Source of the DNA: a virus
Strand: one strand, 5' to 3'
DNA: 64,000 bases
Virus record (IMG/VR): IMGVR_UViG_3300045988_131485
Part shown: positions 3,637 to 56,422 of the stretch, piece after piece
Position numbering within the stretch: position 1 is the first letter of the stretch
Layout of the letters: every line of letters begins with the position of its first letter
Notes under the pieces: model-generated
Databases searched by the model: none
What the model saw: the letters and a program-made list of their open reading frames with translations, nothing else
Told to the model about the DNA's origin: nothing
Program-made: the position numbers and the translations under genes

Positions 3637-4520
3637 GGTTAGCATCCGTCGTCTCCCGCCTTAATTACAGACGGGAGACGAAAATTTTGGAGGTGTTAAT
3701 TTTGAAACGGTTTAAGGTGCAAACCGCAGACGGCCACACTTTGCTGCTCTACTATCCCACCCAAGAGAAAGCCCAGGAGAGCTACCCGGACGCCACAATT
3801 ACGGAACATACCGACCAATCTCATGTAGAGTACATTGAGCGGATGCTTGCTGCCGCCAACGATTGTAAAACGGCGGAACGCAAAGGTTCTACCGTTTATC
3901 TTCTCAGGTTTAATACGTCGGCGGGCATCTGTTTGGCGATGCTTTCCCGAGATATCAGCGACGGAATGTGGTACGACTTGTGCCAGTATCAATTCTGGAA
4001 ATCCGGGGCACTGGTCGCTCCAATCACTAAGACCCTATCTAATCCGGCTGCGTTTTGTAAACAGTTTCTTTTCCCGAAGTCGGAATACCAAGTGCTTTGC
4101 GCTGGCGGCAAGCTCCCAAAGCCGGAAGAAATCAGAGGCGTTAGGAAATTCGCTTCTGTCCCTTTTGAGGGAATATGTCAGTGCCAGCTATTCCTAAAAG
4201 GTGACGACTTATATATCAAGCATAACGACTACTTTTCAGAAACGCACTCCACCGGAAAGATTGATCCGCGCACCAACATGGAGGAACGGGTGCTATATAT
4301 TTGCCACGCATGGCTGAGGATTACCAATTTTGTACCATTGGTAAAACTCCTGAACAACGTGGAAATTTCTGCCACAGTTTGGCCTATGCTTCGGGACTTC
4401 CACCAATGGCCGGCAGGTGAATATAATATGGAGTGGAACCGCTTTTTGGAGGGTGTAGCGAGGGCTACAAGAAACTATCTGAGCAAAAAGGAGGTAGGTT
4501 ATGGAACAGAGAACTTGTAA
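3633..4520 (+). CDS. hypothetical protein (about 270-295 aa)
   Basis: ATGA overlap with the upstream gene. Alternative TTG start near 3702 after GGAGG. No motif recognised. Confidence 0.6.
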   Translation: MRLASVVSRLNYRRETKILEVLILKRFKVQTADGHTLLLYYPTQEKAQESYPDATITEHTDQSHVEYIERMLAAANDCKTAERKGSTVYLLRFNTSAGICLAMLSRDISDGMWYDLCQYQFWKSGALVAPITKTLSNPAAFCKQFLFPKSEYQVLCAGGKLPKPEEIRGVRKFASVPFEGICQCQLFLKGDDLYIKHNDYFSETHSTGKIDPRTNMEERVLYICHAWLRITNFVPLVKLLNNVEISATVWPMLRDFHQWPAGEYNMEWNRFLEGVARATRNYLSKKEVGYGTENL

Positions 4521-4989
4521 TATCATCATGTGCTGCAAGGGGCATTGCAAACTCGCGGGCGAAAATGCTCCGCCGTTGGAGGCCATCGCTGCATACATGA
4601 GCGCTGAGTGCGCTTGTCCGAAGGAAGACTACACCGGAAAGCTGATGGAAATGATTTTGAGAGAGGCGCTGTTTGATTATATGGCGGGCGCGGACAAGCC
4701 CGGATATGAGCTGCGCCAGCTTCTTCAGCAATATGCCACACGTGACCCCAATCTTTCGGAGCGTATCTACACCTTATTCCAGTTAGCCCAAGTGAGAGAT
4801 GATAACAGGTATGTCAATGGGTTTACGGATAAATTGCTCCGGCAAAGTGAGATTGATCTTGGAGCCTCCAGAGACAGTATGCCCTGTCTTTTGGATGAAA
4901 AGAAGATCGTCAATTATCCTTGTTCTCGCGCCTGCCCGCTTTTTGGAGACTGCGTTACAAAGTGGTATCAGGTAAGAAAAAGAGCTTGA
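4501..4989 (+). CDS. hypothetical Cys-rich protein (162 aa)
   Basis: ATG after AAGGAGG RBS. Several Cys pairs. No family recognised. Confidence 0.6.
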   Translation: MEQRTCNIIMCCKGHCKLAGENAPPLEAIAAYMSAECACPKEDYTGKLMEMILREALFDYMAGADKPGYELRQLLQQYATRDPNLSERIYTLFQLAQVRDDNRYVNGFTDKLLRQSEIDLGASRDSMPCLLDEKKIVNYPCSRACPLFGDCVTKWYQVRKRA

Positions 4990-5100
4990 CCGGTTAGCAA
5001 TCCCCCTTTTCTTTCTGTAATAGAAGTGAGGGGCGCGGTTCTGAGAGGACTCCGCATAAAAGCCTCTCTCCAGAAAAAGAAAGATAGAGCAGGTGAAAGA

Positions 5101-8100
5101 ATGAAGTATCAATACCTTAATGAACCGATTCCCCAGGAAGCCCGACATGAGTTGAACGACAAGATCCTCTATTTGGTAGACCAGGATTTGGCCGAACAGT
5201 CTGGGATCTCCCGTGAGGATATCTATAATGCCTATACCGGAGACGGTGGATTGCATGGCCTGAAACGCTCTGACTTTGCCAACTATCATGAGTATGCGGA
5301 GGCTAAGAAGGAGATCGAGAACGGTCAGTTCTTTACACCTCCCGCTCTTTGCCAGTTTATCATGGAGGCGCTGTCCCCTGCTATGGACGAAACGGTAGCA
5401 GACCTCACCTCTGGCATCGCCAACTTCTGTAACTTCATGCCGCTGGAGGCAAACTTCTACGGCTGTGAGTTGGACATCAAGTCCCACAAAGTAGCGCACT
5501 ATCTTTACCCCGCCGCTAATCTGGAACACCGTGATATCCGTTTCTATCAGCCGAATATGCGGTTTGACTATGTAGTGGGCAACCCTCCGTTCAATCTGAA
5601 ATGGGAGACGGAGGGTGGCGAGATCATCTCTCAGATGTACTACTGCCTGAAAGCGGCGAAGCTGCTGAAGCCTCTGGGCATTATGGCGATTGTGGTGCCG
5701 GCGTCTTTCCTGGCCGACGAATATTTGGACGGTGCGAAAATTTCCGAACTGGCAAAAGATTTCTCTTTCCTGGGTCAGGTCTCCATTCAGAAGGATGCGT
5801 TCAAATCTCTTGGCGTGGATAGCTACGCTACCAAGATACTCTTTTGGCAGAAGAAGCTGGACGTTGCCGACAAGGGAGAACCTTATGCTCTGAACAGTGC
5901 CAACTGGTTCAATCTGACCGACATGAATAACGCGGCAGAGCTGCTTGAGATCGTCCGTAAGGAAGTCGTTGCCCCGGCCAGAGAGCGGATGCGGAGCAAC
6001 AGTGCCCGCGTTAAGCTGGTGTCGATGGGTGGGAGCGACAATGCGTTCGAGTATGAAGTGCGGAAGCTGATGTTCCATATCAAGTCCAACCCCAAACTGA
6101 TAGACAAATATGCCAAGTGTCAGGAATATCTCTACAAGTTCCGCCATCAGGAACAGCCCAAGGATATGAAGTATGAGGAATGGGCAAAAATCCGTATTAC
6201 GGAAGCTAAGGTATTGGCCTATCTTCGTCGTGTTATCAAGTCTCAGCATAAGAAGCCCAGCCAGGATGTGGTACGACTGGTCAAGCAGGATGGAGGGCTG
6301 ATTTACAAAGGGTACAGCAAAAAGGCACAGAACAGCATGAGCGACGGCATGAAACAGCTCGTTCCCTTCTATGCCCTTGCCTCTGGACAAGCGGATGATA
6401 CAGGTCTTGAGCAGTATGCCCGCCTTATTCGTCGTAAGCAGCGCGACTATGAGCGAGAGACAAAACCTTTTACCGAGATGGAACAGGACGCCGAGATCGC
6501 TCAGTTCCTGGATGACTTTACCGTTTATGACAATGAGAACGAGGAGTGGATTCACCTCAATAACACCCAGAAGCACGACCTGAACCTCGTTCTTCAGAAG
6601 CATTATCATCTGTTACAGTGGGAACAGGGTGGTGGCAAGACGCTGGCCGGCATCTCCACAGGCCGGTATCGGATGGAGCGTCAGGGCGCTCGTAACGTGT
6701 GGGTGGTATCCACTGCTATCTCCATCAAGAACAACTGGGATCTGGTGTTCAAAAACTATGGCATGACCAACTACCGGATGATAAAGTGCCTCGCCGACCT
6801 CGACAAAGTACAGGATGGGGAGTTCGTTATCATCACCCTGAATATGCTTACCAAGTACCGTAAGCAGATCAAGCGCCATATCAAAATGCGGGACCAGAAC
6901 GTGTGCTTGGTGTTCGATGAGTCCGACGAGATGACCAACCCGGATAGCAAGCGCACAAAGGCTGTGTTGGATTGTTTTCGGAGAGTACGGTTTAAGCTGG
7001 AAATGACTGGCACTGTCACCCGGAACAACATCTCGGAATGTGCGCCTCAGCTTGAGCTGCTTTATAACAACTCTTACAATATGCTCTCCTGGGCAGAAGA
7101 TCTATATTGCTATGAGAAGGATGACTGTGAGGAATATCTGAACTGTTCAAGTAATCCTTACTACGGCCAGCCCTTCCCTGCTTATAAAGCTGGATACAAT
7201 CTGTTCGCTGAATCCCATCTGCCTGAGCGGATCACCGTTTTCGGAGTGGGTAAGAAAACCCAAGACATTTACAATGCGGATGTCCTGAACAAGCTCCTCT
7301 CCTACTCGGTCATCACCCGGACTTTCGCGGAGATCACCGGCAAAGAGATACGTAGACTTCATCAAACCCCAGTTTCATTCGCTCCTGCAGAGCGTGAAGT
7401 CTATCAAAAGGCCATGGAAGAGTTTTTCTCCATGCGCCAGCGGTACTTCGCCCTTACCGGGAATAGCCGCAAGGATAGCATGATGGCGCTGATCCAGCAG
7501 ATTACTTTGTTGCTCCGTATCTCTGCTGCACCCAACACTGTGGAGGAATACGACAGCCCGAATACGCCGGTCAAAATTCGGAAGGTTTGTGACATGGTGG
7601 GCGAATGGAAGGATGAGATTGTAGTTATTGGTGTCCGCCATAAGAACGTGGTGGAAGCATACGCTAATGAAATCCGCAGGAGATTCCCGGATCGGAAGCT
7701 GTTTGTCGTGACCGGCTCTACCACCACTCTGGCCGGACGTCGGAAGCTGAAAAATACTCTGAAAGAAAGCGGAAACGGCATTCTCCTTTGTACCCAGCAG
7801 TGCCTCCCCTCCTCTGTCAACTTTGAGTTCGTCAACAAAGTTATCATCCCGGAGCTGCATTACAACAATGCGCGGATGAGCCAGTTCTATATGCGGTTTG
7901 TTCGCTTTACCTCTACGGACTGGAAAGACATCTACTTTGTTACTTACTCTGGAAGCATTGAGTCCAACCAGATGCAAATGGTGCTCGCCAAAGAGAAACT
8001 GAACCTTTTCATGAAGGGGCAGGACGTAGATCTGGATGAGGTGTATGACCGCTTTGGCGTGGATTATGACCTGATGAGCCTGTTGATGTCTCGTGAGGCA

Positions 8101-8151
8101 GACGAGGACGGAAACTTCAAAATCTCTTGGGGAGAGCAGAAGATCAGCTAA
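5101..8151 (+). CDS. fusion protein: N6-adenine DNA methyltransferase domain plus SNF2/DEAD-like helicase domain
   Basis: ATG 5101. Methyltransferase motif IV VVGNPPFNLKW and AdoMet-region DLTSGIANF. Helicase Walker A GGGKT, motif II DESDE, motif III MTGT and C-terminal helicase blocks. Confidence 0.85.
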   Translation: MKYQYLNEPIPQEARHELNDKILYLVDQDLAEQSGISREDIYNAYTGDGGLHGLKRSDFANYHEYAEAKKEIENGQFFTPPALCQFIMEALSPAMDETVADLTSGIANFCNFMPLEANFYGCELDIKSHKVAHYLYPAANLEHRDIRFYQPNMRFDYVVGNPPFNLKWETEGGEIISQMYYCLKAAKLLKPLGIMAIVVPASFLADEYLDGAKISELAKDFSFLGQVSIQKDAFKSLGVDSYATKILFWQKKLDVADKGEPYALNSANWFNLTDMNNAAELLEIVRKEVVAPARERMRSNSARVKLVSMGGSDNAFEYEVRKLMFHIKSNPKLIDKYAKCQEYLYKFRHQEQPKDMKYEEWAKIRITEAKVLAYLRRVIKSQHKKPSQDVVRLVKQDGGLIYKGYSKKAQNSMSDGMKQLVPFYALASGQADDTGLEQYARLIRRKQRDYERETKPFTEMEQDAEIAQFLDDFTVYDNENEEWIHLNNTQKHDLNLVLQKHYHLLQWEQGGGKTLAGISTGRYRMERQGARNVWVVSTAISIKNNWDLVFKNYGMTNYRMIKCLADLDKVQDGEFVIITLNMLTKYRKQIKRHIKMRDQNVCLVFDESDEMTNPDSKRTKAVLDCFRRVRFKLEMTGTVTRNNISECAPQLELLYNNSYNMLSWAEDLYCYEKDDCEEYLNCSSNPYYGQPFPAYKAGYNLFAESHLPERITVFGVGKKTQDIYNADVLNKLLSYSVITRTFAEITGKEIRRLHQTPVSFAPAEREVYQKAMEEFFSMRQRYFALTGNSRKDSMMALIQQITLLLRISAAPNTVEEYDSPNTPVKIRKVCDMVGEWKDEIVVIGVRHKNVVEAYANEIRRRFPDRKLFVVTGSTTTLAGRRKLKNTLKESGNGILLCTQQCLPSSVNFEFVNKVIIPELHYNNARMSQFYMRFVRFTSTDWKDIYFVTYSGSIESNQMQMVLAKEKLNLFMKGQDVDLDEVYDRFGVDYDLMSLLMSREADEDGNFKISWGEQKIS

Positions 8152-18980: not shown

Positions 18981-19439
18981 ATGATTCCCGACATGATCCA
19001 CACTCCCTACATCGCTCCCCGCATCTCTGTTATGGCACCCCCCCCGGTAACTGCTGAACGGTTCGTTGATGAGCTTCTGAGCGGCCTGTGTATGCCGGAC
19101 GGCGGCTTTGTTGCCCATCTCGCTCCCAGCGGAGATCCTTTCTCCAACGGTTGGAATGCGGCAATGAAGCTCCAAGCCAGTCAGCCTACTTCTCGCTGTT
19201 TGCCGATGCCCGTCAATGTGATCTTTCACAACCCGGCCACCATCGTGTTCTGGGATGACGGTGATAAGACGGTTGTGAAGTGCCAGCCCGGTGATACATT
19301 CAGCGCCGAAGCCGGCCTGACTGCTGCCATGCTGAAGAAGTACATGGGCAACGACAATACTTTCAACAAGGTCATCAACGAGTGGCTGGCTCGTGCCAGC
19401 TATGCCAGCGTCCCCGCTCTGCCGGAGGCCACAGAGTAA
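18981..19439 (+). CDS. hypothetical protein (152 aa)
   Basis: ATG after AGGAGG. Contains the in-frame C8 tract (APPPV). Confidence 0.6.
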   Translation: MIPDMIHTPYIAPRISVMAPPPVTAERFVDELLSGLCMPDGGFVAHLAPSGDPFSNGWNAAMKLQASQPTSRCLPMPVNVIFHNPATIVFWDDGDKTVVKCQPGDTFSAEAGLTAAMLKKYMGNDNTFNKVINEWLARASYASVPALPEATE

Positions 19440-19506: not shown

Positions 19507-20481
19507 ATGACGACAATCATTGGAACCGGGGAGGTGGGTGCTTTGCATAGCAGAGAAGAGTTGGAAGAGATGCAGCACCTGCCTCTCCAACGCAAAATCC
19601 AGATCACTACTGCTCGTATCATCGAGTGGTATCAGCACTACGACGGGAAGGTCTATGTGGCATTTAGCGGTGGTAAGGATTCTACCGTACTACTCGATAT
19701 TGTGCGGCGGATCTACCCCGATGTGCCTGCTGTTTTCTCTGATACCGGGCTTGAGTTCCCGGAAGTCAGAGAATTTGTTAAGAGCTGTGAAAACGTTACG
19801 ATTGTCCGGCCTGAGATGAACTTCCGTAAAGTTATTGAGGTGTACGGATATCCCGTTGTCTCGAAGCGTGTAGCTGACACTGTGGAATATGGGCATAAGC
19901 CTGGTTCTTTCAGATGGAAAGAGCTACATGGAGAGATCATGCGGAGCAACGGAACGCCGTCAGAGTTCAACTGTGAAAAATGGTGCTATCTATTGGATGC
20001 CCCATTCAAGGTTTCTTCTCGGTGCTGTACAATCATGAAGAAGCAGCCTATGAAGAAATACTCCAAGGAAACTGGTCGAGTGCCTATTATTGCAACTATG
20101 GCAAACGAGAGCAGATCTCGGCGTGCCACATGGTTACGTATGGGATGCAATGCTTTTTCCGGTAAGAAGCCCAGCTCCCAACCCATGTCTTTTTGGACTG
20201 AGGAAGATGTGCTGGAATACCTCTATACCTATCAAGTCCCCTACGCTTCGGTTTATGGCGAGATCGTCAGAACTGATAGGGGGGGGTGGACGACGACAGG
20301 CGAAAAGCGTACTGGCTGTGTCTTTTGTGCCTTTGGCGCTCACCTTGAAAAAGCTCCAAACCGTTTCCAGCGTCTAAAAATCACGCACCCAAAGCTCTGG
20401 GATTACTGCATGAGGCCGTGGGAAGAACATGGTTTGGGTATGCGGCAAGTCCTTGAGTATATTGGTATTCCGGTAGAATAA
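19507..20481 (+). CDS. PAPS-reductase-family PP-loop ATP pyrophosphatase (IbrA/DndC-like)
   Basis: PP-loop VAFSGGKDSTVLLDIV. C-terminal Cys cluster (CVFCAFG). Start is uncertain (alternative ATG 19570). Contains an in-frame G8 tract. Confidence 0.75.
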   Translation: MTTIIGTGEVGALHSREELEEMQHLPLQRKIQITTARIIEWYQHYDGKVYVAFSGGKDSTVLLDIVRRIYPDVPAVFSDTGLEFPEVREFVKSCENVTIVRPEMNFRKVIEVYGYPVVSKRVADTVEYGHKPGSFRWKELHGEIMRSNGTPSEFNCEKWCYLLDAPFKVSSRCCTIMKKQPMKKYSKETGRVPIIATMANESRSRRATWLRMGCNAFSGKKPSSQPMSFWTEEDVLEYLYTYQVPYASVYGEIVRTDRGGWTTTGEKRTGCVFCAFGAHLEKAPNRFQRLKITHPKLWDYCMRPWEEHGLGMRQVLEYIGIPVE

Positions 20482-22218: not shown

Positions 22219-22785
22219 ATGAAGATTCTTGTAATAGTGGATATGCAAAACGATTTCATCAATGGTGCGCTCGGAACCCCGGAGGCGCAGGCCGCTGTTG
22301 GAGATGTCGCCAAAAAGATTTCTGGCTTTGACGGAGACCTGATTTGCATTACCAAGGACACCCATCGTTCTGCCGACTACCTGAAAACCCAAGAAGGTCA
22401 GCTACTTCCTGTCGAGCACTGCATTGAGGGGACTCACGGCTGGCGGCTCGACGATATCATTGCCACGGCTGTTAGCCATGCGGCTATCGACGCGGAGAAA
22501 AGCGTATCCGTATTCCAGAAAGGTACGTTTGGCTCTGTGGAGTTGGGCGATTACCTGGTAGAGCTTTCCGCCAGAAGGAAGCAGCGCATTGAAGAGATCG
22601 TTTTCGTTGGACTCTGCACCGACATCTGCGTTATCTCTAACGCACTGCTCGTCAAAGCGTTTCTACCTGAGACGAAAATCACCGTTGACGCTGCCTGCTG
22701 TGCCGGCGTTACCCCGGCAAGCCACAAAAATGCTCTGGCTGCTATGAAAGCGTGCCAGATCAATGTGGAGAACTGGGAGGTCTGA
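22219..22785 (+). CDS. pncA: isochorismatase-family cysteine hydrolase, nicotinamidase-like
   Basis: ILVIVDMQNDF, and the catalytic Cys context VGLCTDICV. Confidence 0.75.
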   Translation: MKILVIVDMQNDFINGALGTPEAQAAVGDVAKKISGFDGDLICITKDTHRSADYLKTQEGQLLPVEHCIEGTHGWRLDDIIATAVSHAAIDAEKSVSVFQKGTFGSVELGDYLVELSARRKQRIEEIVFVGLCTDICVISNALLVKAFLPETKITVDAACCAGVTPASHKNALAAMKACQINVENWEV

Positions 22786-22786
22786 A

Positions 22787-23599
22787 ATGATTTTTGTTGA
22801 CGATAGAAGGATTGACTTCACCAGTTTCCCCGACGGTACATCTTCGATCCGTATTGCTCCCAAGCTGGATTTCACATTTTTCGCCATGGGTAAATCCGCT
22901 TACTTCATCCGGTGGATGTACGACAATGATGCCGAGTGTATGCAACTCTGGTATTTGGTGAAGCACCTCAAGAGCGCCGGCAACCCGCTCCTCTATCTGG
23001 AGATGCCGTATATCCCCAACGCCCGTATGGACAGGGTGAAGAACCGCGACGAGGTATTCACGCTCAAGTGGTTCGCCGAGTTTATCAATTCGCTCGGGTT
23101 CGAGTCTGTCAAAGTTCTCGACCCCCACTCTAATGTGGCTATGGCGCTGATTAACCGGGCTGAGACCATGGATGTGAAGCACTACATCGACTATGCAATC
23201 CAGTGGATGGTCAGTCAGGGTATGAATCCTCTGCTGTGTTACCCGGATGAAGGTGCCGCCAAACGATACTCTGAGCTTCTTCCTATGGAGTATGTTTTTT
23301 GCATTAAACATCGTGACTGGCGCACCGGCAAGATTGAGCGGCTGGAGCTGACAGAGCCTGAGAAAGTCAACGGCAGAAATATTCTGATTGTGGACGATAT
23401 CTGCTCTCGCGGTGGGACATTCACCCATACTGCCAAAGCTCTGAAAGAGGCCGGCGCGGAGGAAGTTATGCTCTATGTTACCCACTGTGAGAACACGATC
23501 CTGAAAGGCACTGTGTTGACAGATGGTCTTATCTCTCGTGTATTCGCCACTGATAGCATCCTCCGTATTGATCACGAGAAGATTTCCATTTGCAGATGA
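22787..23599 (+). CDS. ribose-phosphate pyrophosphokinase-like protein (Prs / Adps-like)
   Basis: PRPP-binding loop NILIVDDICSRGGTFTH. ATG 22787 lies 7 nt after GGGAGG. Adjacent to the NAMPT-like gene. Confidence 0.75.
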   Translation: MIFVDDRRIDFTSFPDGTSSIRIAPKLDFTFFAMGKSAYFIRWMYDNDAECMQLWYLVKHLKSAGNPLLYLEMPYIPNARMDRVKNRDEVFTLKWFAEFINSLGFESVKVLDPHSNVAMALINRAETMDVKHYIDYAIQWMVSQGMNPLLCYPDEGAAKRYSELLPMEYVFCIKHRDWRTGKIERLELTEPEKVNGRNILIVDDICSRGGTFTHTAKALKEAGAEEVMLYVTHCENTILKGTVLTDGLISRVFATDSILRIDHEKISICR

Positions 23600-23620
23600 T
23601 TATGAAAAGAGGGTAAAACA

Positions 23621-25114
23621 ATGATTTCATACAGTCCTTTGCTCTGTTTGGACTTCTACAAGACTGCCCATGCAGAGCAGTACCCCGCAGCACTGACCAA
23701 GATGGTGTCTTATTACACCCCGCGCATGACACGGCTGGCTGATACCAAGAAGGTCACAATGTTCGGTCTTCAGGCATTTATCCAGGAGTATTTGATTGAG
23801 GCGTTCAATACTCACTTCTTTGATCGCTCATTGGATGAGGTGCTTGCCGAATACAAGCGGGTGCTGAATAACACCATCGGCACGGACGGCGTTGGTGTGG
23901 AGCGTTTGACGGCGCTTCATAAGTTGGGGTATCTGCCTCTGGAAATCCGGGCCGTGCCGGAAGGAACCCGTACCAGTATTCATGTTCCGCAAATTGAGAT
24001 CTCGAATACCAACCCCAACTTTGTGTGGTTGGTCAACTCTATCGAAACAATGCTGTCATGTACCATGTGGCATACTCAGATTTCAGCGGAAGTTGGATAT
24101 CGTTACCGGCAGATCGTCAATAAGTACGCTGCCCTTACCTGTGACGATGATGTGGTACGGGCCAAGCTGCTGGGCGACTTTTCCATGCGTGGTCAGGAAA
24201 GCGTGGAGAGCGCCACCAAGAGTTCTGCTGCGTTCTGCCTGAGCTTCCTTAATACCGCTACAGTGCCGGCTATTCTTTGGCTGGAACACAACTACGCCTG
24301 CCGGGTGGAGAATGACGCAGTAGCTTATGGTGCTCTTTCTACTGAGCACAGTGTTATGTGCTCCAACTATGCGGTTGACGGCGATGAGATTACGCACGTG
24401 CGGCGTCTGCTGAAAGAAATCTATCCGTACCAAAACTTCTCTATGGTCAGTGACAGCTATGACTATTGGAACCTGGTCAATAATATTCTCCCCGCAATTA
24501 AAGAGGATGTGATGGAGCACCATGGATGTCTTGCTATTCGCGGCGACAGCGGCAACCCCGTGGAGATTGTAACCGAGACGGTGTTCAAACTGTGGGAAAT
24601 TTTTGGTGGTACCGTGAATAGCAAGGGTTACAAAGTTCTTGATCCACACGTCAAGGCATTGTATGGCGATAGCATTACCCCGCAGCGGTGCGAGGCAGTG
24701 TATAAGATCCTGATGGAGCATGGCTTCGCTATCAACAATGTTTCTCTGGGTGTCGGTTCTTTCTCTATGCAGTGTCTGGAGACGATGGACGGCGGTGAAA
24801 AGACTTATGCGCCGTATACCCGTGATACATTTGGTATCGCAGTCAAAGCGACCTATGCAGAAGATGCTGACGGAAAGCCCATCATGATTTTTAAGAACCC
24901 CAAGACAGATAGCGGACATTTCAAGAAGTCTCAGCGCGGCTGCTGTAAGGTTGTATATGACTATACGTACCACAACTTCTTCTGTCAGGACGGTTTGACT
25001 TGGGAGGTGTCGCAGGCTGGGAACTGGCTTCAGCCAGTTTTCAAGGATGGAAAGCTCCTGAGAATTTATACCCTGGATGAGGTTCGCAAGAATCTTCATG
25101 AGGGAAACTTTTGA
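23621..25114 (+). CDS. nicotinamide phosphoribosyltransferase family protein (NadV/NAMPT or Namat-like)
   Basis: CLDFYKTAHAEQYP, DFSMRGQES, STEHSVM, SDSYDYW, IRGDSGNP and LYGDSIT are NAMPT family blocks. Confidence 0.8.
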   Translation: MISYSPLLCLDFYKTAHAEQYPAALTKMVSYYTPRMTRLADTKKVTMFGLQAFIQEYLIEAFNTHFFDRSLDEVLAEYKRVLNNTIGTDGVGVERLTALHKLGYLPLEIRAVPEGTRTSIHVPQIEISNTNPNFVWLVNSIETMLSCTMWHTQISAEVGYRYRQIVNKYAALTCDDDVVRAKLLGDFSMRGQESVESATKSSAAFCLSFLNTATVPAILWLEHNYACRVENDAVAYGALSTEHSVMCSNYAVDGDEITHVRRLLKEIYPYQNFSMVSDSYDYWNLVNNILPAIKEDVMEHHGCLAIRGDSGNPVEIVTETVFKLWEIFGGTVNSKGYKVLDPHVKALYGDSITPQRCEAVYKILMEHGFAINNVSLGVGSFSMQCLETMDGGEKTYAPYTRDTFGIAVKATYAEDADGKPIMIFKNPKTDSGHFKKSQRGCCKVVYDYTYHNFFCQDGLTWEVSQAGNWLQPVFKDGKLLRIYTLDEVRKNLHEGNF

Positions 25115-25130
25115 GAAAAGAGGTGCCACA

Positions 25131-25874
25131 ATGTTAGCTAACCCAAAGCGTACTAAGGATGAGATTGTCCAGTGGATTCGTTCCTACTTTGAAAGTAACG
25201 GCCCTGGCTGCGATGCGGTGGTCGGTATTTCTGGTGGTAAAGATTCCAGCGTTGTCGCCGCTCTTTGCGTAGAGGCACTGGGCAAAGAGCGTGTAGTGGG
25301 TGTTATGATGCCGAATGGAGAACAGCCCGATCTGGACGATAGCAAGCAGCTGATCGAATTTCTGGGTATCAGATACGCCTATACCGATATCTCCAAAGCA
25401 GTGTCTGCGGTAAGTGATCAAGTAGCGCTCAATATGAACGTCAGCGATCAGACGAGGATAAACCTCCCTCCCCGTATCCGTATGGCGACCCTCTATGCTA
25501 TTTCTCAGTCGTTGCCTCACGGCGGACGTGTTGCTAATACCTGCAACCGCTCTGAAGACTATGTGGGATACTCTACCAAGTTTGGCGATAGCGCCGGCGA
25601 TTTTAGCCCGCTCGCTAATCTGATGGTGCATGAAGTCATCCAGATTGGGTACGAGCTTCTTCTGCCTATCAACCTGATAAGCAAGACCCCTTCCGATGGG
25701 CTGTGTGGAAAAACTGATGAGGATAATCTTGGATTTACCTATGCTCACCTGGATGCTTACATCATGTATGGCACCAGTGGAATTGAGGAAATCGACAAGA
25801 AGATTGCCTCTATGCACGATCACAACCTTCACAAGCTCAATTCTATGCCTGCCTACGGAACGACAATTTTTTAA
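25131..25874 (+). CDS. nadE: NH3-dependent NAD+ synthetase
   Basis: PP-loop VVGISGGKDSSVVAAL. NadE-like length (247 aa). ATG lies after AGAGGTG. Confidence 0.8.
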   Translation: MLANPKRTKDEIVQWIRSYFESNGPGCDAVVGISGGKDSSVVAALCVEALGKERVVGVMMPNGEQPDLDDSKQLIEFLGIRYAYTDISKAVSAVSDQVALNMNVSDQTRINLPPRIRMATLYAISQSLPHGGRVANTCNRSEDYVGYSTKFGDSAGDFSPLANLMVHEVIQIGYELLLPINLISKTPSDGLCGKTDEDNLGFTYAHLDAYIMYGTSGIEEIDKKIASMHDHNLHKLNSMPAYGTTIF

Positions 25875-25888
25875 TAGGCGGTGAGAAA

Positions 25889-26494
25889 ATGGAAGAGCGT
25901 ACTTATTTGAGCGGCACCAGTTTGGCCGGTATGTCCCCTACCCGCTCTCGTGTGGAGAACGACTACTATGCTACTCCGTTCGAGGCGACAGAAGCCATCC
26001 TTAGCCGAGAAGAGCTGCACGGCTCCATTTTGGAGCCTGCGGCTGGTGAAGGGCATATCAGTAAGGTGCTTCGGGAACATTATCCCAACAGTCAAATTAT
26101 CTCTACTGATATGGTTCAGAGAGATGATAGGTTCGGATGTGGTATTGTTGGCGGGGTGGATTTCCTCACTGAGAACTATCCCGAAAAATTCAACAACGTC
26201 ATCACGAACCCTCCGTTCTCTTTGGCGAAAGAGTTCGCTGAGAAAGCTCTGGAGGTATCCACTGGCAAGGTGATCCTGTTCGCCAAGATCCAGTTTCTCG
26301 AAGGACGGCAACGTAAGGATTTCTTTGCCACCCACCCTCCGAAAGCCGTGTATGTATTTTCAAAACGTGTCAATCCTTTGAGAAACGGATTGGAAGTTGA
26401 CGAAAATGGTAAGCCCTGGTCAAGTACCATGTGCTTCGCTTGGTTCGTATGGGAACATGGCTATACCGGCGAACCTTGCATTCGTTGGATTTAA
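25889..26494 (+). CDS. N6-adenine DNA methyltransferase
   Basis: YYATPFEATEAIL, AdoMet loop ILEPAAGEGHI, and motif IV ITNPPFS. Confidence 0.8.
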   Translation: MEERTYLSGTSLAGMSPTRSRVENDYYATPFEATEAILSREELHGSILEPAAGEGHISKVLREHYPNSQIISTDMVQRDDRFGCGIVGGVDFLTENYPEKFNNVITNPPFSLAKEFAEKALEVSTGKVILFAKIQFLEGRQRKDFFATHPPKAVYVFSKRVNPLRNGLEVDENGKPWSSTMCFAWFVWEHGYTGEPCIRWI

Positions 26495-26495
26495 T

Positions 26496-26511
26496 TTGCA
26501 ACAAAGTAAAT
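26496..26511 (+). repeat. junction motif copy (TTGCAACAAAGTAAAT)
   Basis: Starts 2 nt after the TAA stop of 25889..26494 and precedes the RBS AAGAGGTG. Confidence 0.6.
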
Positions 26512-26525
26512 CAAGAGGTGCAGCT

Positions 26526-27052
26526 ATGAAGATGGATAAGGTTGCCGGCAGTGGCAACGACGAGTTCTATACACCGGAGTATGCGATTGCCCCGTTGTAC
26601 AAGTATCTTCCACCCCCCCCGTGACAATTTGGTGTCCGTTTGACACTGAGGATAGTCTGTTTGTAAAGCTCTTTCGGCAACGCGGCTATACCGTTATCGC
26701 AACACATATTGCAAACGGTCAGGATTTTTTCGCTATTGACCCACCGAAGTGTGACTACATCATCAGTAATCCTCCGTATTCCCTCAAAGGCGAAGTGTTT
26801 GAGCGACTATTCCAGTTGAATATACCCTTTGCTATGTTGGTAGGGGTCGTCGGACTTTTCGAGAGTCAGAAACGCTTTAAGATGTTCCGTGAGCATGATT
26901 TTGAAATCATGTATCTCAATCGGCGTGTATCTTACTTTAAGAACTACGCCGACCAAAAGCCGTCTCTAAACCCGCCTTTCAGTAGTGTCTATGTATGCAA
27001 AGGAATGTTACCAAAGCAGATTATCTTTGAAGAAATTCAAAAAACCTCATAA
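26526..27052 (+). CDS. N6-adenine DNA methyltransferase; reading frame broken at a C8 tract (26613-26620)
   Basis: MKMDKVAGSGNDEFYTPEYAI..YLPPPP, then after the C-run in another frame TIWCPFDTEDS.. with motif IV ISNPPYS. C9 or C6 would fuse the two parts. Confidence 0.75.
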
Positions 27053-27068
27053 TAGCAACAAAGAAAAT
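27053..27068 (+). repeat. junction motif copy (TAGCAACAAAGAAAAT)
   Basis: Directly after the stop codon. Its 3' extension (..aaaattaTTGACT) runs directly into the -35 of the next promoter. Confidence 0.6.
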
Positions 27069-27070
27069 TA

Positions 27071-27099
27071 TTGACTTTATGGAGACAGTATGATAGAAT
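27071..27099 (+). promoter_or_regulatory. sigma-A-type promoter with extended -10
   Basis: TTGACT (27071-27076), 17-nt spacer ending TGA, TAGAAT (27094-27099). Confidence 0.65.
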
Positions 27100-27142
27100 A
27101 AAAGCAGTTCGAGGGAGATTGTAAATCCCTCAACCTTCCGTT

Positions 27143-27158
27143 TAGCAACAAAGAAAAC
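27143..27158 (+). repeat. junction motif copy (TAGCAACAAAGAAAAC) in the leader of the C5-methyltransferase gene
   Basis: About 40 nt downstream of the -10 and followed by AAAGGAGG. Confidence 0.6.
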
Positions 27159-27177
27159 CAACAAAGGAGGAACTAAT

Positions 27178-28055
27178 TTGGATTACCAAACTGCCCTTTT
27201 CTGCGAGTTCGATCGTTACGCCGCAGAAAGCTATTGCGCCGTTCATGGTGTTGATCCCACCCTTAACATCGGAGATATTACCAAAGCCGATGAGAAGGCT
27301 GTGCCGGATTTCAATGTCATGTTCGGTGGAAGTCCGTGTCAGGATTTCAGCATAGCAGGCAAACAGGGGGGGGCTGCATGGACTTGTAAGCATTGCGGCC
27401 ACGTATATAATCCCCTGGAAGCTCACTATGATCAACGCGACCATTGCCCTAAGTGCGGATCAACTGAAATCGAGAAGACTCGCTCTTCCTTACTGGTCGA
27501 ATGGCTGCGTTTCCTAAGAGAAAAGAAGCCTCGCTTCGCTATCTACGAGAACGTTAAAAATATTACCGGTTCTCGCTTCTATGCCACTTTTAACCTCTTT
27601 GTCAAAGAGCTGGAAGACTACGGTTACAACGTCTACTGGCAGGTTCTGAATGCAAAACACTACGGAATCCCCCAGAATCGTGAGCGTGTTTACTGTGTCA
27701 TCATTCGTAAGGATTTAGATAATGGGAAGTTTAAGTTCCCGTCTCCTATCCCTTTGAAAAAAGCGCTGGTAGATATGCTGGAGGATAAGGTTGACGAGCG
27801 ATACTACCTGCCTGATGACAAGGTAGCTGCCATGATAACCCCCCCCGTTCAGACAAATCAGTAACACCGTCCGCACCAGCGGAAGAGGTTCCACAGACCA
27901 CCACTGCTGGGACTTGCTCACTTGCCGGTGTGAAGCTGAGTAAGAAAGGCACCCAGTTTGAAGGATACTGTGAGACGGCCTTGACTTTGCTGGCCCGTGA
28001 CTATAAGGGCTTTGGAAATCAGCAAATGACAGGAGTTATGGAGCATAATGAGTAA
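27178..28055 (+). CDS. dcm: DNA cytosine-5 methyltransferase, part 1 (motifs II-VIII plus first TRD block); no motif I; frame broken at a C8 tract (27839-27846)
   Basis: TTG start. FCEFDRYAAESY (II), GGSPCQDFSIAGKQ (IV), FAIYENVKNI (VI), QNRERVY (VIII). After the C-run in the other frame comes ..TLLARDYKG... CxxC..CxxC insert between motifs IV and V. Confidence 0.75.
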
Positions 28056-28967
28056 GCGATATATTATCCCCGCTGCAATTCGTGGAAGATATGCGGGGGG
28101 GGTAAGATAATACAGCGTTTGGAAGTTCGCCCTAATATGTGTACCAACACTTTGACGGGTGTTCAAAAAGACAATGTATTGATTGAGATAGATGAAAGCG
28201 AGGAAGCTAATGTGAAAATCGTATGTGAGCGTCGATGCGATGAAGGTGTGCGTTTTTTCAAAGATAATGTCTGCGGCACTATTCGCACCATTGATGGGGG
28301 GGGGGACAAGAGAGTGATTGAAAGAAGTCCTACGTCAGAAGATAAAATCACAATGATTGGCGGCTTACAAAAGCACCAGACTCCAAGAAACGATGGTATT
28401 TGCCCATGCATAAATAGTGCCGCTGGTATGGGCGGCGGACAAACACCTATCGCAATACGCCCGAGTTTTCGTGTCCGTAAACTTACGCAAAAAGAGTGTT
28501 GGCGTTTAATGGGTTTCCAAGATCAGGACTTTGAACGTGCCAAATCCGCCATGAACGAAAATATCTATGGTGGAGCAGATAGGAGCGGGTCACAGCTTTA
28601 CAAGCAGGCTGGAAACTCTATCGTGGTAGACGTTCTCTGTGCCATTTTGGATGAACTTCACAGTGCTATGCCGTATCTCTTTGAAGATATGACTGTTGGT
28701 TCTTTCTTTTCCGGTATCGGAGCATTTGAAAAAGCACTGTCTACTTTTGATATTACCGATGTTAGCGACAAAGTAAATTATTCTGATAAGAATGATGAAC
28801 TGAAGCAGCTCGGATATATCAATGATTACAATGGAGACGCCAATCGTGTATATGATGGCGAAACCATTGCACGTGCTTTGAAAGCCGAAGCGGGAGGGGG
28901 CGGAGCCAAGACTGGATGGTATGCTCTGAGAAGCCCGGAGGTTGACCATGGAGAAAGTCAGAATTAA
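28048..28967 (+). CDS. dcm: DNA cytosine-5 methyltransferase, part 2 (several TRD-like blocks, motifs IX and X, then motif I); frame broken at a G8 tract (28095-28102)
   Basis: MSKRYIIPAAIRGRYAGG / KIIQRLEVRPNMCTNTLTGVQKDN. RKLTQKECWRLMGFQD (IX), QAGNSIVVDVL (X), then MTVGSFFSGIGAFEKAL (I) in frame. In-frame G10 tract at 28296. Confidence 0.7.
28763..28778 (+). repeat. junction motif copy (TAGCGACAAAGTAAAT) inside the ORF, immediately after the displaced motif-I segment
   Basis: ..FDITD|VSDKVNY.. Followed by ATTATTCTG, as in the copies at 10925 and 51723. Confidence 0.65.
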
Positions 28968-29163
28968 GCAGGCCACCCAAAAAGGTTATATCGAGTGTGC
29001 TGTGGGGGGGGTAGCGGATTTATCTTACCCGTCCAGTAAAACTCGAAGAGGTCGAGTCCAGGAAGGTGGTTGGATTTGTCCAACTATCACTGCAACAGAA
29101 ACCGGCATTTGTCGGATAGAAAGAGGTGATTCATATGAGCATTGCGTTGAGAAACCGCCGTGA
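28942..29163 (+). CDS. C5-methyltransferase TRD-like fragment (73 aa)
   Basis: KVRIKQATQKGYIECAVGGVADLSYPSSKTRRGRV resembles TRD blocks of phage C5-methyltransferases. No catalytic motifs. In-frame G8 tract at 28994. Confidence 0.4.
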   Translation: MTMEKVRIKQATQKGYIECAVGGVADLSYPSSKTRRGRVQEGGWICPTITATETGICRIERGDSYEHCVEKPP

Positions 29164-29422
29164 AGCATATGACCAGATCGAACCGAAGCGTCCTAATCGT
29201 AAGGCTATGATTTTGGATATTCTGACCAGCGGTGATCCTGGCGGTATGACTGCTGATGAGATTGGCGAGAAGCTGGTCTCTGAGGGCAAAATCCCCACCA
29301 ACAGTCCGAACTTCACACGGCCTCGTCTGACAGAGATGAAAGCCGAGGGCAAGGTTGTGATCGTCGGCAGACGTCTTGGCAAGTCTGGGTGCAATACGGC
29401 AGTCTGGAAGGTGAAGCGCTGA
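29135..29422 (+). CDS. small winged-helix DNA-binding protein (95 aa)
   Basis: ATG after AGAGGTG. ILDILTSG..MTADEIGEKL..RPRLTEMKAEGKVV is a wHTH-like pattern. Confidence 0.5.
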   Translation: MSIALRNRREAYDQIEPKRPNRKAMILDILTSGDPGGMTADEIGEKLVSEGKIPTNSPNFTRPRLTEMKAEGKVVIVGRRLGKSGCNTAVWKVKR

Positions 29423-29682
29423 TGTATGGTGAATACACCTGTCTGGACTGTGGCAAAACCTTTGACGATCCGAAGCGATGGGAAGAACGCCATGGGTTAG
29501 ATTCTCCGCCCTATGAGGATTTCAGCGGTTGTCCTTACTGTGGCGGAGCCTATGCCCGTACTATCCTTTGCGATGCCTGCGGAGAACCGATAGTCGGCGA
29601 TTATGTCAAAATCCAAACAACTGGCGACTGCTATTGTGATGAATGCTTCATGATGAAATCGCTGGGCGAAGATGATCCATGA
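29422..29682 (+). CDS. zinc-ribbon protein (86 aa)
   Basis: CLDCGK..CPYCGG..CDACGE..CYCDEC are four Cys pairs. ATGA-type overlap with the upstream gene. Confidence 0.55.
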   Translation: MYGEYTCLDCGKTFDDPKRWEERHGLDSPPYEDFSGCPYCGGAYARTILCDACGEPIVGDYVKIQTTGDCYCDECFMMKSLGEDDP

Positions 29683-29696
29683 GAAGAGGTCGTGAA

Positions 29697-30476
29697 ATGA
29701 AAACTTCAGTCAAACGGCGTGCGAAAAACTGCATACGGGGAGCGGTTTTATTGGCCTGTTTCATTGCCGTCTGGTATGTGGCCTCGTGCTTCACCCAACC
29801 GCTGTTTATCCCCGCCCCTGCTACCGTCTGGGAAGCAATCGTCGGGTTGGCAGAGACAGGCCAGTTGCAAAAAGGACTTGCCTACTCTTTCCTGCGGATT
29901 ACTGGTGCGTCTGCTCTTTCTATGCTGGTAGCAATTCCCCTCTCCCTTCTGATTTATGGCGTGAAGCCTATCAAGGAAACTATCATGCCGGTTGTTTCCT
30001 TCCTGCGGTATGTTCCCGTAACCGCATTTTCTCCGCTCCTGATCCTATGGTTTGGGATTGGGGAGCAGATGAAAATTTCGTTCCTATTTATTGCAACGTT
30101 TGTCTACTTGCTGCCGTCGATCCTGCTTTGCTTTAACGACGTACCGCAAGATCTGATGGATACGGGCAAGACAATCGGAATGACCAGTTGGGAGACAATC
30201 AAAGAAATCCTGCTCCCCGCATCGCTCCCTTCAATATTCAGTACGTTCCTTATGATGTATGGCATTGGCTGGACATACTGCGCCGTGGTAGAGGCAACCA
30301 ACGCTAAGTACGGCTTGGGCTTCATCATCAATGTAAGCTCCGCCAGAGGCCGTACCGCCGTGGTGTTCGGGGCAATCATCGTAATCATGTTGTTCAGCTT
30401 CGTTTTTGACAAGCTGGGGAACTTGCTGATCCGAAAGATATTCCAGTGGAGGTACTGCGATGATCAAGTTGAATGA
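29697..30476 (+). CDS. ABC transporter permease (NitT/TauT-type)
   Basis: Six hydrophobic segments. EAA-like loop DLMDTGKTIGMTSWETIKEILLPASLPSI. Confidence 0.8.
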   Translation: MKTSVKRRAKNCIRGAVLLACFIAVWYVASCFTQPLFIPAPATVWEAIVGLAETGQLQKGLAYSFLRITGASALSMLVAIPLSLLIYGVKPIKETIMPVVSFLRYVPVTAFSPLLILWFGIGEQMKISFLFIATFVYLLPSILLCFNDVPQDLMDTGKTIGMTSWETIKEILLPASLPSIFSTFLMMYGIGWTYCAVVEATNAKYGLGFIINVSSARGRTAVVFGAIIVIMLFSFVFDKLGNLLIRKIFQWRYCDDQVE

Positions 30477-31101
30477 TCTGGCTATTGGGTACAACGGCGA
30501 AGCAATTCTGGAGCACATCGACCAGGAATTTGACGACGGTTTGATTTACGGTATTTTGGCGAAGTCTGGTGCCGGTAAGACGACTCTCCTCAAAACCATC
30601 TCTGGCCTTCTTCACCCTGTTCATGGTGAGGTTATCATTGATGGCACTACCTATCGGAACGCCGACAAGAACCCTGTGTACATGATGCATCAGCGCTATT
30701 CCAACTTCGGATGGCTTTCCTGCACGGAGAATGTGCTGATTGCCCAACGGGACAAAAAACTCCGTAGCCGCGATGACGCTATCAAGGTACTTGCAGCGGT
30801 TGGGTTAGAGCAGTATGCAGATAAATGGCCGTCTCAGCTATCAGGTGGTATGCAACAGCGCCTTGCGTTGGCGAGAACACTGTATGTCAAGCCGAAATAC
30901 CTACTTATGGATGAACCGTTATCCGCTTTGGACGACAAAACCCGTAGCAAAATGCAGCGTTTGATTTTGGATGTCCATGCTGAGACAGGCAACACAATCA
31001 TTATGGTAACGCACAGCCAGGACGAGGCGTTCAAAATGTGCGATAAAATAATCAAATTTGAAACGAGAGGAGCTGTAACAAACCATGGCAGGTTTATTTG
31101 A
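30460..31101 (+). CDS. ABC transporter ATP-binding protein
   Basis: Walker A AKSGAGKTT, signature LSGGMQQR, Walker B LLMDEPLSALD, H-loop VTHS. Confidence 0.85.
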   Translation: MIKLNDLAIGYNGEAILEHIDQEFDDGLIYGILAKSGAGKTTLLKTISGLLHPVHGEVIIDGTTYRNADKNPVYMMHQRYSNFGWLSCTENVLIAQRDKKLRSRDDAIKVLAAVGLEQYADKWPSQLSGGMQQRLALARTLYVKPKYLLMDEPLSALDDKTRSKMQRLILDVHAETGNTIIMVTHSQDEAFKMCDKIIKFETRGAVTNHGRFI

Positions 31102-53833: not shown

Positions 53834-54148
53834 ATGTCCCATATTTATGAGAATGATACGAAGCCCATTCTGAGCGACCCTCCGTATCTGTTGCAATTCA
53901 TTTTGTCCGTGGTGCTGTCTGTGCTCTGTGGAGCGACCATCATGTTCATGTGGAACTGGTTCGTTGTCCCGCTCGGGCTTCCCATGATTGGCCTGGTACA
54001 AGCGCTGGGGCTTGATACGCTCATCACATTCATTGTGACCACCAGAGTCAATACCCCCCCCGATCCATTCTGGGATCGTTGGATCACTGCTATCACCTAT
54101 GCGCTTCTCACATTGTTCGTCGGGTGGCTGCTCCATTTCTTCATGTGA
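53834..54148 (+). CDS. small membrane protein (104 aa)
   Basis: Three hydrophobic segments. Contains an in-frame C8 tract (TPPD). Confidence 0.55.
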   Translation: MSHIYENDTKPILSDPPYLLQFILSVVLSVLCGATIMFMWNWFVVPLGLPMIGLVQALGLDTLITFIVTTRVNTPPDPFWDRWITAITYALLTLFVGWLLHFFM

Positions 54149-55993: not shown

Positions 55994-56422
55994 ATGAATA
56001 CAGAAGTCATGTTCTCGTCCAGGGCTATGGACTGGGCGACGCCGCAGGCGTTCTTTGACCAACTGGATTCGGAGTTTCACTTCACCCTCGATCCCTGCGC
56101 TGATAAGTCCAATCACAAGTGCGACCGGTACTTTACCGTAGCAGACGACGGACTGAGACAGCCGTGGGGGGGGCAGACGGTCTTCTGCAATCCACCGTAT
56201 GGCAGGGCTATCAAAGACTGGGTGAAGAAATGCTCCGAAGAGGCCAAGCAGCCTGACACCACCGTGGTACTGCTTATCCCGGCCCGTACAGACACAGCCT
56301 ACTTTCACGATTACATCTATCAGAAACCCAATGTGGAAGTTCGCTTCATACGTGGCCGGCTGAAATTTGGAGACGGAAAGAACTCCGCACCATTCCCCAG
56401 TATGGTAGTCATTTTCCGTTAA
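55994..56422 (+). CDS. dam: phage Dam-type N6-adenine DNA methyltransferase
   Basis: DWATPQAFFDQLDSEFHFTLDPCA and FCNPPYG. Contains an in-frame G8 tract (PWGGQ). Confidence 0.85.
   Translation: MNTEVMFSSRAMDWATPQAFFDQLDSEFHFTLDPCADKSNHKCDRYFTVADDGLRQPWGGQTVFCNPPYGRAIKDWVKKCSEEAKQPDTTVVLLIPARTDTAYFHDYIYQKPNVEVRFIRGRLKFGDGKNSAPFPSMVVIFR

Follow-up and report, generated by a model that had tools for sequence, protein, structure and literature searches.

Cytosine-5 DNA methyltransferases (C5-MTases) are regarded as uniform in architecture. M.AquI is built of an alpha and a beta chain, encoded by two adjacent genes: the split falls in the variable region, both chains are required, and motifs I to VIII are carried by alpha. 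The C5-MTases of Bacillus phages studied in the Trautner laboratory (M.SPRI, M.Phi3TI, M.Rho11sI and M.H2I) are multispecific, with several tandem target recognition domains (TRDs) of 40-50 residues between motifs VIII and IX, and serve in self-protection against restriction. The locus described here lies at positions 27178-29163 of a 64,000-nucleotide stretch of viral DNA (the window; IMG/VR record IMGVR_UViG_3300045988_131485), and its parts are on the + strand. With a probability of about 0.75, it encodes a phage or prophage C5-MTase of a natural, circularly permuted family, split in this lineage and equipped with homopolymer-switched TRDs. Its most likely function would be that of a phase-variable, multispecific anti-restriction methyltransferase, which might protect the phage DNA against changing host restriction systems.

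Natural permuted enzymes were searched for in REBASE in a study that also engineered permutants of M.MpeI and of M.SssI (PMC5944983; PLoS One, 2018). According to the survey reported there, all 27 natural permutants are cut in the variable region (the M.BssHII type), and other topologies seem not to occur in nature, though several engineered ones are active. The members of this 'type H' (M.BssHII, M.Alw26I, M2.Eco31I, M.Esp3I and M2.BsaI) resemble the window enzyme in being C5-MTases with motif X before motif I, for which an origin by duplication and fusion has been proposed. As described in that study, motifs IX-X are followed by motifs I-VIII in these enzymes, so both structural domains stay intact. 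The window family, on the contrary, is cut in the loop between helix alpha-A and strand beta-2, through the Rossmann-fold cofactor domain, and 22 residues are moved. The N-terminus of the window enzyme is found 3-4 residues before strand beta-2 (motif II) and not in the variable region that defines type H, and motifs IX-X come after motif VIII and the TRDs.

The engineered cp35M.MpeI and cp33M.SssI, as well as the class B constructs cp62 and cp58, also have N-termini early in the large domain and fused native termini. These are laboratory constructs, whereas the window family is natural. As they are reported in the same study to keep their activity in vivo, a topology like that of the window enzyme is compatible with catalysis. 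The motif I/II topology is apparently new in nature, since the 2018 REBASE survey, as far as its account of natural enzymes goes, found variable-region permutants only. In a full-text literature search, which does not cover REBASE itself, no subsequent description of a natural enzyme permuted between motifs I and II was found; no zinc-ribbon C5-MTase and no phase-variable phage C5-MTase were found in the literature search either.

The first open reading frame (ORF) of the locus starts with a TTG codon (27178-27180), 7 nt after a ribosome binding site (RBS; AAAGGAGG, 27163-27170), and homologous proteins begin at the same residue (MDYxTALF). It opens with MDYQTALFCEFDRYA, which corresponds to motif II. 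The catalytic core (27178-27846, frame 1) contains motif II (LFCEFD, 27196-27213), the PCQ of motif IV with the catalytic Cys nucleophile (27334-27342), the ENV of motif VI (27547-27555) and the QNRER of motif VIII (27673-27687). The ORF (27178-27864) matches PF00145 (E = 1.4e-47) and TIGR00675 (E = 1.2e-48) but enters these profiles at positions 24 and 21, and an equivalent of motif I is absent from its N-terminus. Motif IX (RKLTQKECWRLMGF, 28476-28517) and motif X (QAGNSIVVDVL, 28605-28637) are encoded further downstream in frame 0, in a last ORF whose match to both profiles is confined to their extreme C-terminal positions. Behind motif X, the tail of the C-terminal helix and a conserved linker, AMPYLFED (28638-28688), lead to the displaced N-terminal piece MTVGSFFSGIGAFEKALSTFDI (28689-28754), which comprises motif I (strand beta-1, FxGxG) and helix alpha-A. 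Three-frame translation of 27040-29440 revealed that this run from motif X into the displaced piece is in frame, with neither a stop codon nor an RBS between. The motif order of the window enzyme is hence II-VIII, TRD, IX, X, I, in place of the canonical linear order I to X.

Put before the ORF, the 22 displaced residues extend the PF00145 match to an unbroken stretch of profile positions 1-83, which scores 67 bits, versus 54 bits without them. The de-permuted construct aligns to residues 17-92 of M.HhaI with a single gap of 2 residues. Furthermore, a canonical sister gene, L074, was identified in another IMG/VR record (IMGVR_UViG_3300025030_000550, 3938-5371). This gene is the sole case of canonical order among ~150 close loci; it starts with MKVLSCFSGLGAFEKALQRQNIKYELVNYCEIDKYA, ends 13 residues after GNSIV and possesses the same zinc ribbon and SNTVRSSGRGS element as the window gene. 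The de-permuted window protein aligns to it without a gap from Met1 through residue 203 (61% identity, E = 2e-124). The moved piece is therefore exactly residues 1-22 of the canonical enzyme, initiator Met included, and at the joint nothing is missing and nothing is duplicated.

An earlier note on this DNA had proposed that the gene at 27178 begins at motif II without motif I, that the segment 28689-28760 is the missing motif and that the two gene ends are complementary to within one residue. The profile entry points bear out the first claim, and the alignments to M.HhaI, PF00145 and L074 the second. The complementarity proved to be exact, as no residue is lost or gained relative to L074. The core motifs, the X-to-I run-on and the TAA/ATG overlap that it had listed were all located at their sites by the three-frame translation and the motif coordinates. 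Neither of the two observations that it had named as contrary, an N-terminal equivalent of motif I or a failure of 28689-28760 to align to motif I, was seen. Judged from these alignments, the circular permutation of the window enzyme, which places motif I after motif X, is genuine.

Thousands of homologous proteins were retrieved with the first ORF as query, and every one inspected begins at motif II. Motifs were scanned in all frames of 80 loci from IMG/VR and 80 loci from GTDB genomes. The order II-IV-VI-VIII-IX-X-I was encountered in ~150 related but independent phage and prophage loci of gut Clostridia, down to ~45% identity, and in these motif I always follows GNSIV in frame at a distance of exactly 93 nt (31 codons); such a recurrence is not due to chance. 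The homologs L149-L159, with 42% identity or less, came out canonical: their motif I precedes the match by 51-69 nt. The scan is thus able to detect both arrangements. The 52-residue segment from motif X to motif I was also searched alone against 1.84 billion representative proteins. A contiguous match was obtained in 235 clusters (50% identity), 124 of which at an E-value of 1e-10 or better, and many of these are single-chain proteins of 370-885 aa with the junction at the extreme C-terminus. For example, the single-chain members P0042, P0088 and P0100 end with GNSIVVDVL..MPYLFxD..GSFFSGIGAFEKA. In Lachnospiraceae (Blautia, Dorea, Enterocloster and Coprococcus), single ORFs of 450-730 aa are found, which stop 10-25 residues past the motif I helix. 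The split form occurs in Oscillospiraceae: in Dysosmobacter segnis BX15 and Hominicoprocola fusiformis (99% identity), and in the complete genome of Clostridiales bacterium CCNA10. A megablast search of 26400-29500 against deposited phage genomes gave no near-identical match. With 235 clusters, abundant in the phages of human and animal gut Clostridia, this family indicates that nature also cuts C5-MTases through the cofactor-binding domain.

An AlphaFold2 model of the single-chain member P0042, based on an alignment of 75 sequences, has a mean pLDDT (predicted local distance difference test) of 80 and a pTM (predicted template modeling score) of 0.79. Its C-terminal segment forms a strand (residues 362-368) and then a helix (371-386) with a pLDDT of ~90, which correspond to beta-1 and alpha-A of the Rossmann fold. 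The best Foldseek matches of this model are M.HhaI, M.MpeI and M.HaeIII; all matches are canonical C5-MTases, with TM scores of 0.5-0.6. As this aligner is sequential, it cannot place the displaced strand, which probably packs beside the motif X helix and beta-2. In three dimensions, the two termini of C5-MTases adjoin, so the displaced strand may still complete the pocket for S-adenosylmethionine (AdoMet).

Two other explanations for the motif order have to be weighed here. The displaced piece starts with Met and is followed by a TRD, as in an internally deleted second gene; the locus could then consist of two independent, non-functional remnants, an N-terminally truncated methyltransferase and the stump of a second methyltransferase gene. 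This is very improbable, given that no stop or RBS separates X from I, that homologs have Ile, Leu or Val in place of this Met and that the joint and its spacing are conserved in the 235 clusters, including intact single ORFs of 450-885 aa. Moreover, the segment is under purifying selection. Independent truncated genes were rejected on the conserved joint and the residue-exact complementarity to L074. Hardly more credible is a recent rearrangement in the window genome itself, by excision and re-insertion or from a tandem duplicate, through the junction motif that the earlier note had placed at both breakpoints. Exact copies of this motif (TAGCAACAAAGAAAA) do start at 27053 and 27143, a near-exact copy is found at 28763, and a deletion variant, P0001, ends at the 27143 copy. 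However, the permuted order is fixed in the ~150 loci, to 45% identity and in several families of Clostridia, and most permuted loci have no copy of the motif after motif I. The joint, in addition, is a conserved peptide (AMPYLFxD) and not a DNA junction. The motif precedes the RBS of many unrelated genes and thus behaves as a general leader element, and its internal copy at 28763 is limited to the closest sub-clade, inside a variable linker. Since the permutation predates and outranges this internal copy, the motif did not create the breakpoints, and it was rejected as the recombination site. The conservation across ~150 loci and the conserved joint peptide refute a recent motif-mediated event as the origin of the permutation. 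Judging from this distribution, the rearrangement is an ancient and fixed protein architecture rather than a recent DNA event.

A possible precursor of the permuted family was encountered when the IX-X-I segment was compared by tblastn with deposited phages. In Bacillus phage BC-VP (OR725122.1, 74133-77103; L164), three DNA methyltransferase genes stand in a row. Two canonical C5-MTases come first; they share one reading frame, a single stop codon lies between them, and across their boundary (GNAIVVDVMVDIFKELFKDRIKGETH, stop, MEELRVVELFSGYG) the sequence passes from motif X of the upstream gene to motif I of the downstream one. Losing this stop would give an X-to-I fusion with nearly the spacing of the window. 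The module behind motif I in the window (LGYINDYNGDANRVY..RALKAEAGGGGAKTGWY) has a clear relative in the TRD encoded by the second BC-VP gene (IGYIGNQPKQATRVY..STLTANGGGQGGKTGLY), and it also matches, weakly but specifically, residues 229-268 in the M.HhaI TRD. Most likely, the family arose by the in-frame fusion of two tandem methyltransferase genes and the loss of redundant parts. After fusion, motif I of the first copy would have been lost, as well as motifs II-VIII and IX-X of the second, and the HhaI-like TRD behind motif I would be a leftover of the second gene. This proposed history matches the duplication model for permuted methyltransferases cited in PMC5944983. Both L074 and BC-VP keep motif I at the N-terminus of each protein and likely represent the state before permutation; together they would make an unusually complete natural case of permutation by duplication and fusion. 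The circle-cut or tandem-duplicate origin suggested in the earlier note is thereby retained in part: a tandem pair is plausible from BC-VP, but the order fixed in ~150 loci does not agree with a recent DNA event.

The permuted enzyme is additionally divided. Separate alpha (~292 aa) and beta (~300-360 aa) proteins are conserved across the Oscillospiraceae clade, with the split in the variable region. The alpha proteins, 292-295 aa long, terminate in GNQQMTGV(M/V)E, and intact beta homologs begin with MxxxxIPAAIRGRY...QRLE.RPD.CTNTLT.VQKDN. In the window, the beta ORF starts in frame 1 with an ATG at 28048 that overlaps the stop codon of the long form of alpha (ATGAGTAA, 28048-28055); it reads MSKRYIIPAAIRGRYAGG and then stops (28048-28107). 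The catalytic loop of alpha contains a zinc ribbon, a 33-residue CxxC...CxxC insert between the positions of M.HhaI residues 92 and 94 (27373-27471). This ribbon is present throughout the permuted clade and in L074, and absent from the homologs at 42% identity or less. Both the split at 28048-28055 and the zinc ribbon had been pointed out in the earlier note, and their conservation in relatives confirms them. The division into two ORFs, on the contrary, was too simple: the window gene is in at least four pieces, because the frame also changes at a C8 (27839-27846) and a G8 (28095-28102), and the TRD blocks that had been listed span three frames.

Alpha has motifs II-VIII, the zinc ribbon in the catalytic loop and an optional TRD; beta has further TRDs, motifs IX, X and I, and the TRD behind motif I (TRD-e). 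As motif I is on beta and motifs II-VIII are on alpha, the cofactor site would have to form across two chains. Alpha and beta presumably assemble, with an AdoMet pocket built from both. In its two adjacent ORFs, the split in the variable region and the probable need for both chains, the window locus is similar to M.AquI, from which it differs in having motif I on beta and not on alpha. Natural bisected methyltransferases are also cited in PMC5944983. Such a two-chain pocket would be of interest for targeted methylation with split-methyltransferase tools.

Between 27848 and 28457, at least four TRD-like modules are encoded. Behind the C8 at 27839-27846, two alternative tails of alpha overlap. 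The frame-2 tail, FRQISNTVRTSGRGSTDHHCWDLL (27848-27940), is the ancestral continuation of the chain, as it is in frame in L074 and in distant homologs. The frame-0 module, which runs from KLSKKGTQFEGYCETALTLLARDYKGFGNQ to MEHNE before the stop (27930-28055), is joined to the core in relatives with C9 or C6 at this site and is represented by P0002 and P0003 (more than 2,400 member sequences). Three further modules are encoded by beta in frame 0: KIIQRLEVRPNMCTNTLTGVQKDN (28104-28187), CERRCDEG...TIRTIDGGGDKRVIE (28218-28322) and ITMIGGLQKHQ...AAGMGGGQTPIAI (28347-28457). Behind motif I, a variable linker with the leader-motif copy inside the ORF (28755-28799; TAGCGACAAAGTAAATTATTCT, 28763-28784) is followed by TRD-e, an HhaI-type TRD-like module (LGYINDYNGDANRVYD...AEAGGGGAKTGWY, 28800-28967; beta stop at 28965-28967). 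The last gene, ORF-C, encodes a stand-alone TRD of 71 residues of the SKTRRGRV type (28936-29163; RBS GGAGG at 28936-28940, ATG at 28948). This trailing sequence had been described as TRD-like fragments; it is instead coding sequence under purifying selection (28800-29160).

The module content differs among close relatives by insertions and deletions of whole modules. The position of TRDs of the SKTRRGRV, VQKDN and YDDYN types depends on the genome and is either the VIII-IX interval or the region behind motif I, and TRD-e was found after motif I only, in 61/61 loci. For P0088, a protein lacking any TRD in the VIII-IX interval, the AlphaFold2 model shows a confident core, but TRD-e has a pLDDT of 42-55, so that the model is uninformative on its docking. 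The phage origin and the tandem TRDs between VIII and IX are shared with the multispecific enzymes of Bacillus phages, which are single chains in canonical order without permutation, zinc ribbon, homopolymer switches or TRDs outside VIII-IX. In a distant sub-clade (L144, L147 and L148; contigs of metagenome-assembled genomes in GTDB), the extension behind motif I is Cys-rich and zinc-finger-like (…GHCPICGKAMTD…HICNDC…) and not a TRD.

Length polymorphism of in-gene tracts, leading to ON/OFF switching or alternative C-termini, is described for phasevarions (Type III mod, Type I hsdS/hsdM) and for the C-terminal switching of Helicobacter canadensis (PMC2823697). Those systems are bacterial, chromosomal and N6-adenine-specific, usually with one tract per gene. 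In the window and its relatives, up to seven tracts (T0-T6) are found in one prophage C5-MTase locus, placed module by module and including a choice of tail in three frames. T0 (C8, 26613-26620) lies in a neighboring gene for an NPPY-type amino-methyltransferase (26526-27052), which is broken by C8 and restored to a single ORF by C9 (C8 in 11 and C9 in 5 of 16 relatives). T1 (G8, 27366-27373) encodes QGGA just past the PCQ and is in frame in the window; among relatives G8 is found in 33, and the G9 (10), G7 (5) and G6 (1) of the others break the catalytic core.

T2 is the C8 at 27839-27846, a three-way switch of the alpha C-terminus. With C8, translation continues in frame 1 and stops after five codons (27862-27864), which gives 228 aa without a TRD. 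C9 or C6 leads to frame 0, where an unconserved linker is followed by the TLLARDYKG TRD, in an alpha protein of 292 aa; this form is encoded by the near-identical genome L001, with C9. C7 or C10 leads to the frame-2 tail. All three frames occur among public sequences (C9 in 11, C8 in 8, C7 in 1 and C6 in 1 of the relatives). T3 (G8, 28095-28102) is out of frame and cuts the beta ORF short after 20 codons; with G9, or if G_GGG_GGG allowed a -1 slip, the ORF would be fused to frame 0 and beta would be as long as its intact homologs. T4 (G10, 28296-28305) is in frame in the window, and G9 stops beta (G9 in 13 and G10 in 11 relatives). T5 (G8, 29004-29011) is in frame inside ORF-C, with G9 in 9/16 relatives and G8 in 7. 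T6, the Gly run of TRD-e (28891-28900), is interrupted in the window (GGGAGGGGG) and is a variable run of G7-G10 in relatives, in which all three frames are used. The tract lengths seen in the window keep the core in frame, end alpha before any TRD and put the first TRD of beta out of frame, whereas the later TRDs, the IX-X-I segment and ORF-C can all be read in frame.

G/C runs of exactly 6 are absent from the window, which has one of 7 and ten of 8 or more. Six of the ten are concentrated in the 3.3 kb of methyltransferase genes at 25889-29163 (binomial p = 3e-6), and a seventh (56166-56173) lies in the ORF of a phage N6-adenine methyltransferase (55994-56422, TIGR01712). The remaining runs are at 20279-20286, in a PP-loop/PAPS-reductase-like ORF (19507-20481), and at 19038-19045 and 54054-54061, in small ORFs.

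Tract lengths differ between genomes that are 99.5% identical (4-7 substitutions in 1.8 kb). For example, 4 substitutions and a single tract indel separate the window from L004 over 1.8 kb, and 6 substitutions and 3 tract indels separate it from L033. The variability per codon position was followed along the gene in 26 relatives. The constrained frame is frame 1 at 27700-27835, frame 2 but not frame 0 at 27850-27940, and frame 0 at 27946-28050. Both alternative tails of alpha are thus selected, since each segment is constrained in its own frame. Every other module likewise shows variation biased to third positions in its own frame.

These observations fit contingency loci better than decay or sequencing error, because the runs are kept pure at 8-10 nt where synonymous Gly or Pro codons could be used instead, their placement is modular, they vary between near-identical genomes and their flanks are selected. 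The mechanism would be slipped-strand phase variation at up to seven G/C runs, possibly together with ribosomal or transcriptional slippage. Tract length would switch the core on or off and pick the TRDs that are covalently attached, and hence the sites that are methylated.

That the permuted family is real, but the window copy and many relatives are decaying pseudogenes, or that the tract differences are errors of sequencing or assembly and the frame breaks functionless, seems quite unlikely. Two window tracts do break the frame, the data are mostly metagenome assemblies, and T1 is out of frame in the catalytic core of about one third of the relatives. T3, on the contrary, is G8 in 14/14 close relatives, though it has the same base and length as variable tracts. 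Random homopolymer error would not leave it invariant, and it serves as an internal control that disfavors pure sequencing error. The assemblies of the cultured isolates L083, L090 and L095 differ mutually in tract length as well. Codon signatures of purifying selection extend to every module, even behind broken tracts, and to both overlapping frames. Pure runs of 8-10 nt are kept, even if mixed Gly codons are used in some lineages at the same sites, and the lack of runs of exactly 6 and the concentration of long runs in methyltransferase genes also speak against decay or error. A programmed -1 ribosomal frameshift or transcriptional slippage at the out-of-frame tracts, giving fixed ratios of short and long products instead of heritable phase variation, is also unlikely, if slightly less so. 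Both frame-breaking tracts are perfect zero-frame X_XXY_YYZ heptamers (C_CCC_CCC at T2 and G_GGG_GGG at T3), both need a -1 shift, the product of the slip has exactly the length of intact homologs, and the invariance of T3 would be explained. The RNA folds predicted downstream are, however, not convincing as stimulatory structures (z = 0.08 after T3 and, for a weak fold, z = -1.67 after T2), the other tracts clearly vary in the DNA, and G-rich or C-rich heptamers are not known as efficient slippery sites in bacteria. Frameshifting is moreover compatible with phase variation rather than exclusive of it.

Some points weigh against a permuted enzyme with phase-variable TRDs. An invariant T3 is unlike a freely slipping tract, so that the tracts do not all behave alike, and relaxed selection would also fit the third of related loci in which T1 disrupts the core. 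The evidence for reversible switching consists of differences between genomes. We know of no structural precedent among solved enzymes for a TRD behind motif I, and AlphaFold2 leaves TRD-e unplaced.

A wider reading, which we propose tentatively, is that of a contingency 'switchboard'. Up to seven runs would combinatorially rewire the TRDs on a permuted two-chain C5-MTase, including the choice of tail in overlapping frames and TRDs working behind motif I. One prophage population would then hold many specificities and hedge against host restriction. If true, with such a homopolymer-controlled set of TRDs a temperate phage could alter its methylome, and possibly that of the lysogen, in a novel manner, with consequences for its host range and its evasion of restriction in the gut. 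The homopolymer frame switches may be the most interesting part of the biology of this locus. As the family is present as prophage in cultured strains (Dysosmobacter segnis BX15, Hominicoprocola fusiformis CLA-AA-H269 and Clostridiales bacterium CCNA10), these predictions are directly testable.

The region upstream of alpha (27053-27157) contains the two exact copies of the leader motif (27053-27067 and 27143-27157), a small hairpin and a sigma-70-like promoter, TTGACT-17-TAGAAT with an extended -10 (27071-27099). In its general form, TAGCAACAAAG(A/T)AAA, often with TTATTCT, the motif occurs 20 times in the window versus 2 expected, nearly always on the + strand, and lies 15-35 nt upstream of the RBS or start of at least 14 genes. 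Copies were located at 9939, 10925, 14419, 26496, 27053, 27143, 28763, 34708, 43208, 51658, 51723 and 56423. It looks like a phage-specific promoter or leader element. In the near-identical genome that encodes the public protein P0001, a deletion of ~0.9 kb relative to window 25889-27177 removes the second methyltransferase; as a result, the first 118 residues encoded by the 25889 ORF continue directly into the C5-MTase gene's translated leader.

The window belongs to a large temperate phage with its own DNA polymerase, primase-helicase, NrdD, genes for the salvage of nicotinamide adenine dinucleotide (NAD) and an integrase. The methyltransferase cluster is flanked on one side by the NAD salvage genes (22763-25874), which comprise a phosphoribosyltransferase-like gene, NAMPT (23621-25114) and NAD synthase (25077-25874), and on the other by a permease/ATPase pair of an ATP-binding cassette transporter (29679-31101). 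At 5026-8151, a helicase of 1041 residues is encoded, with a methyltransferase-like N-terminal region and weak matches to DarB-like anti-restriction proteins, which may be an anti-defence gene.

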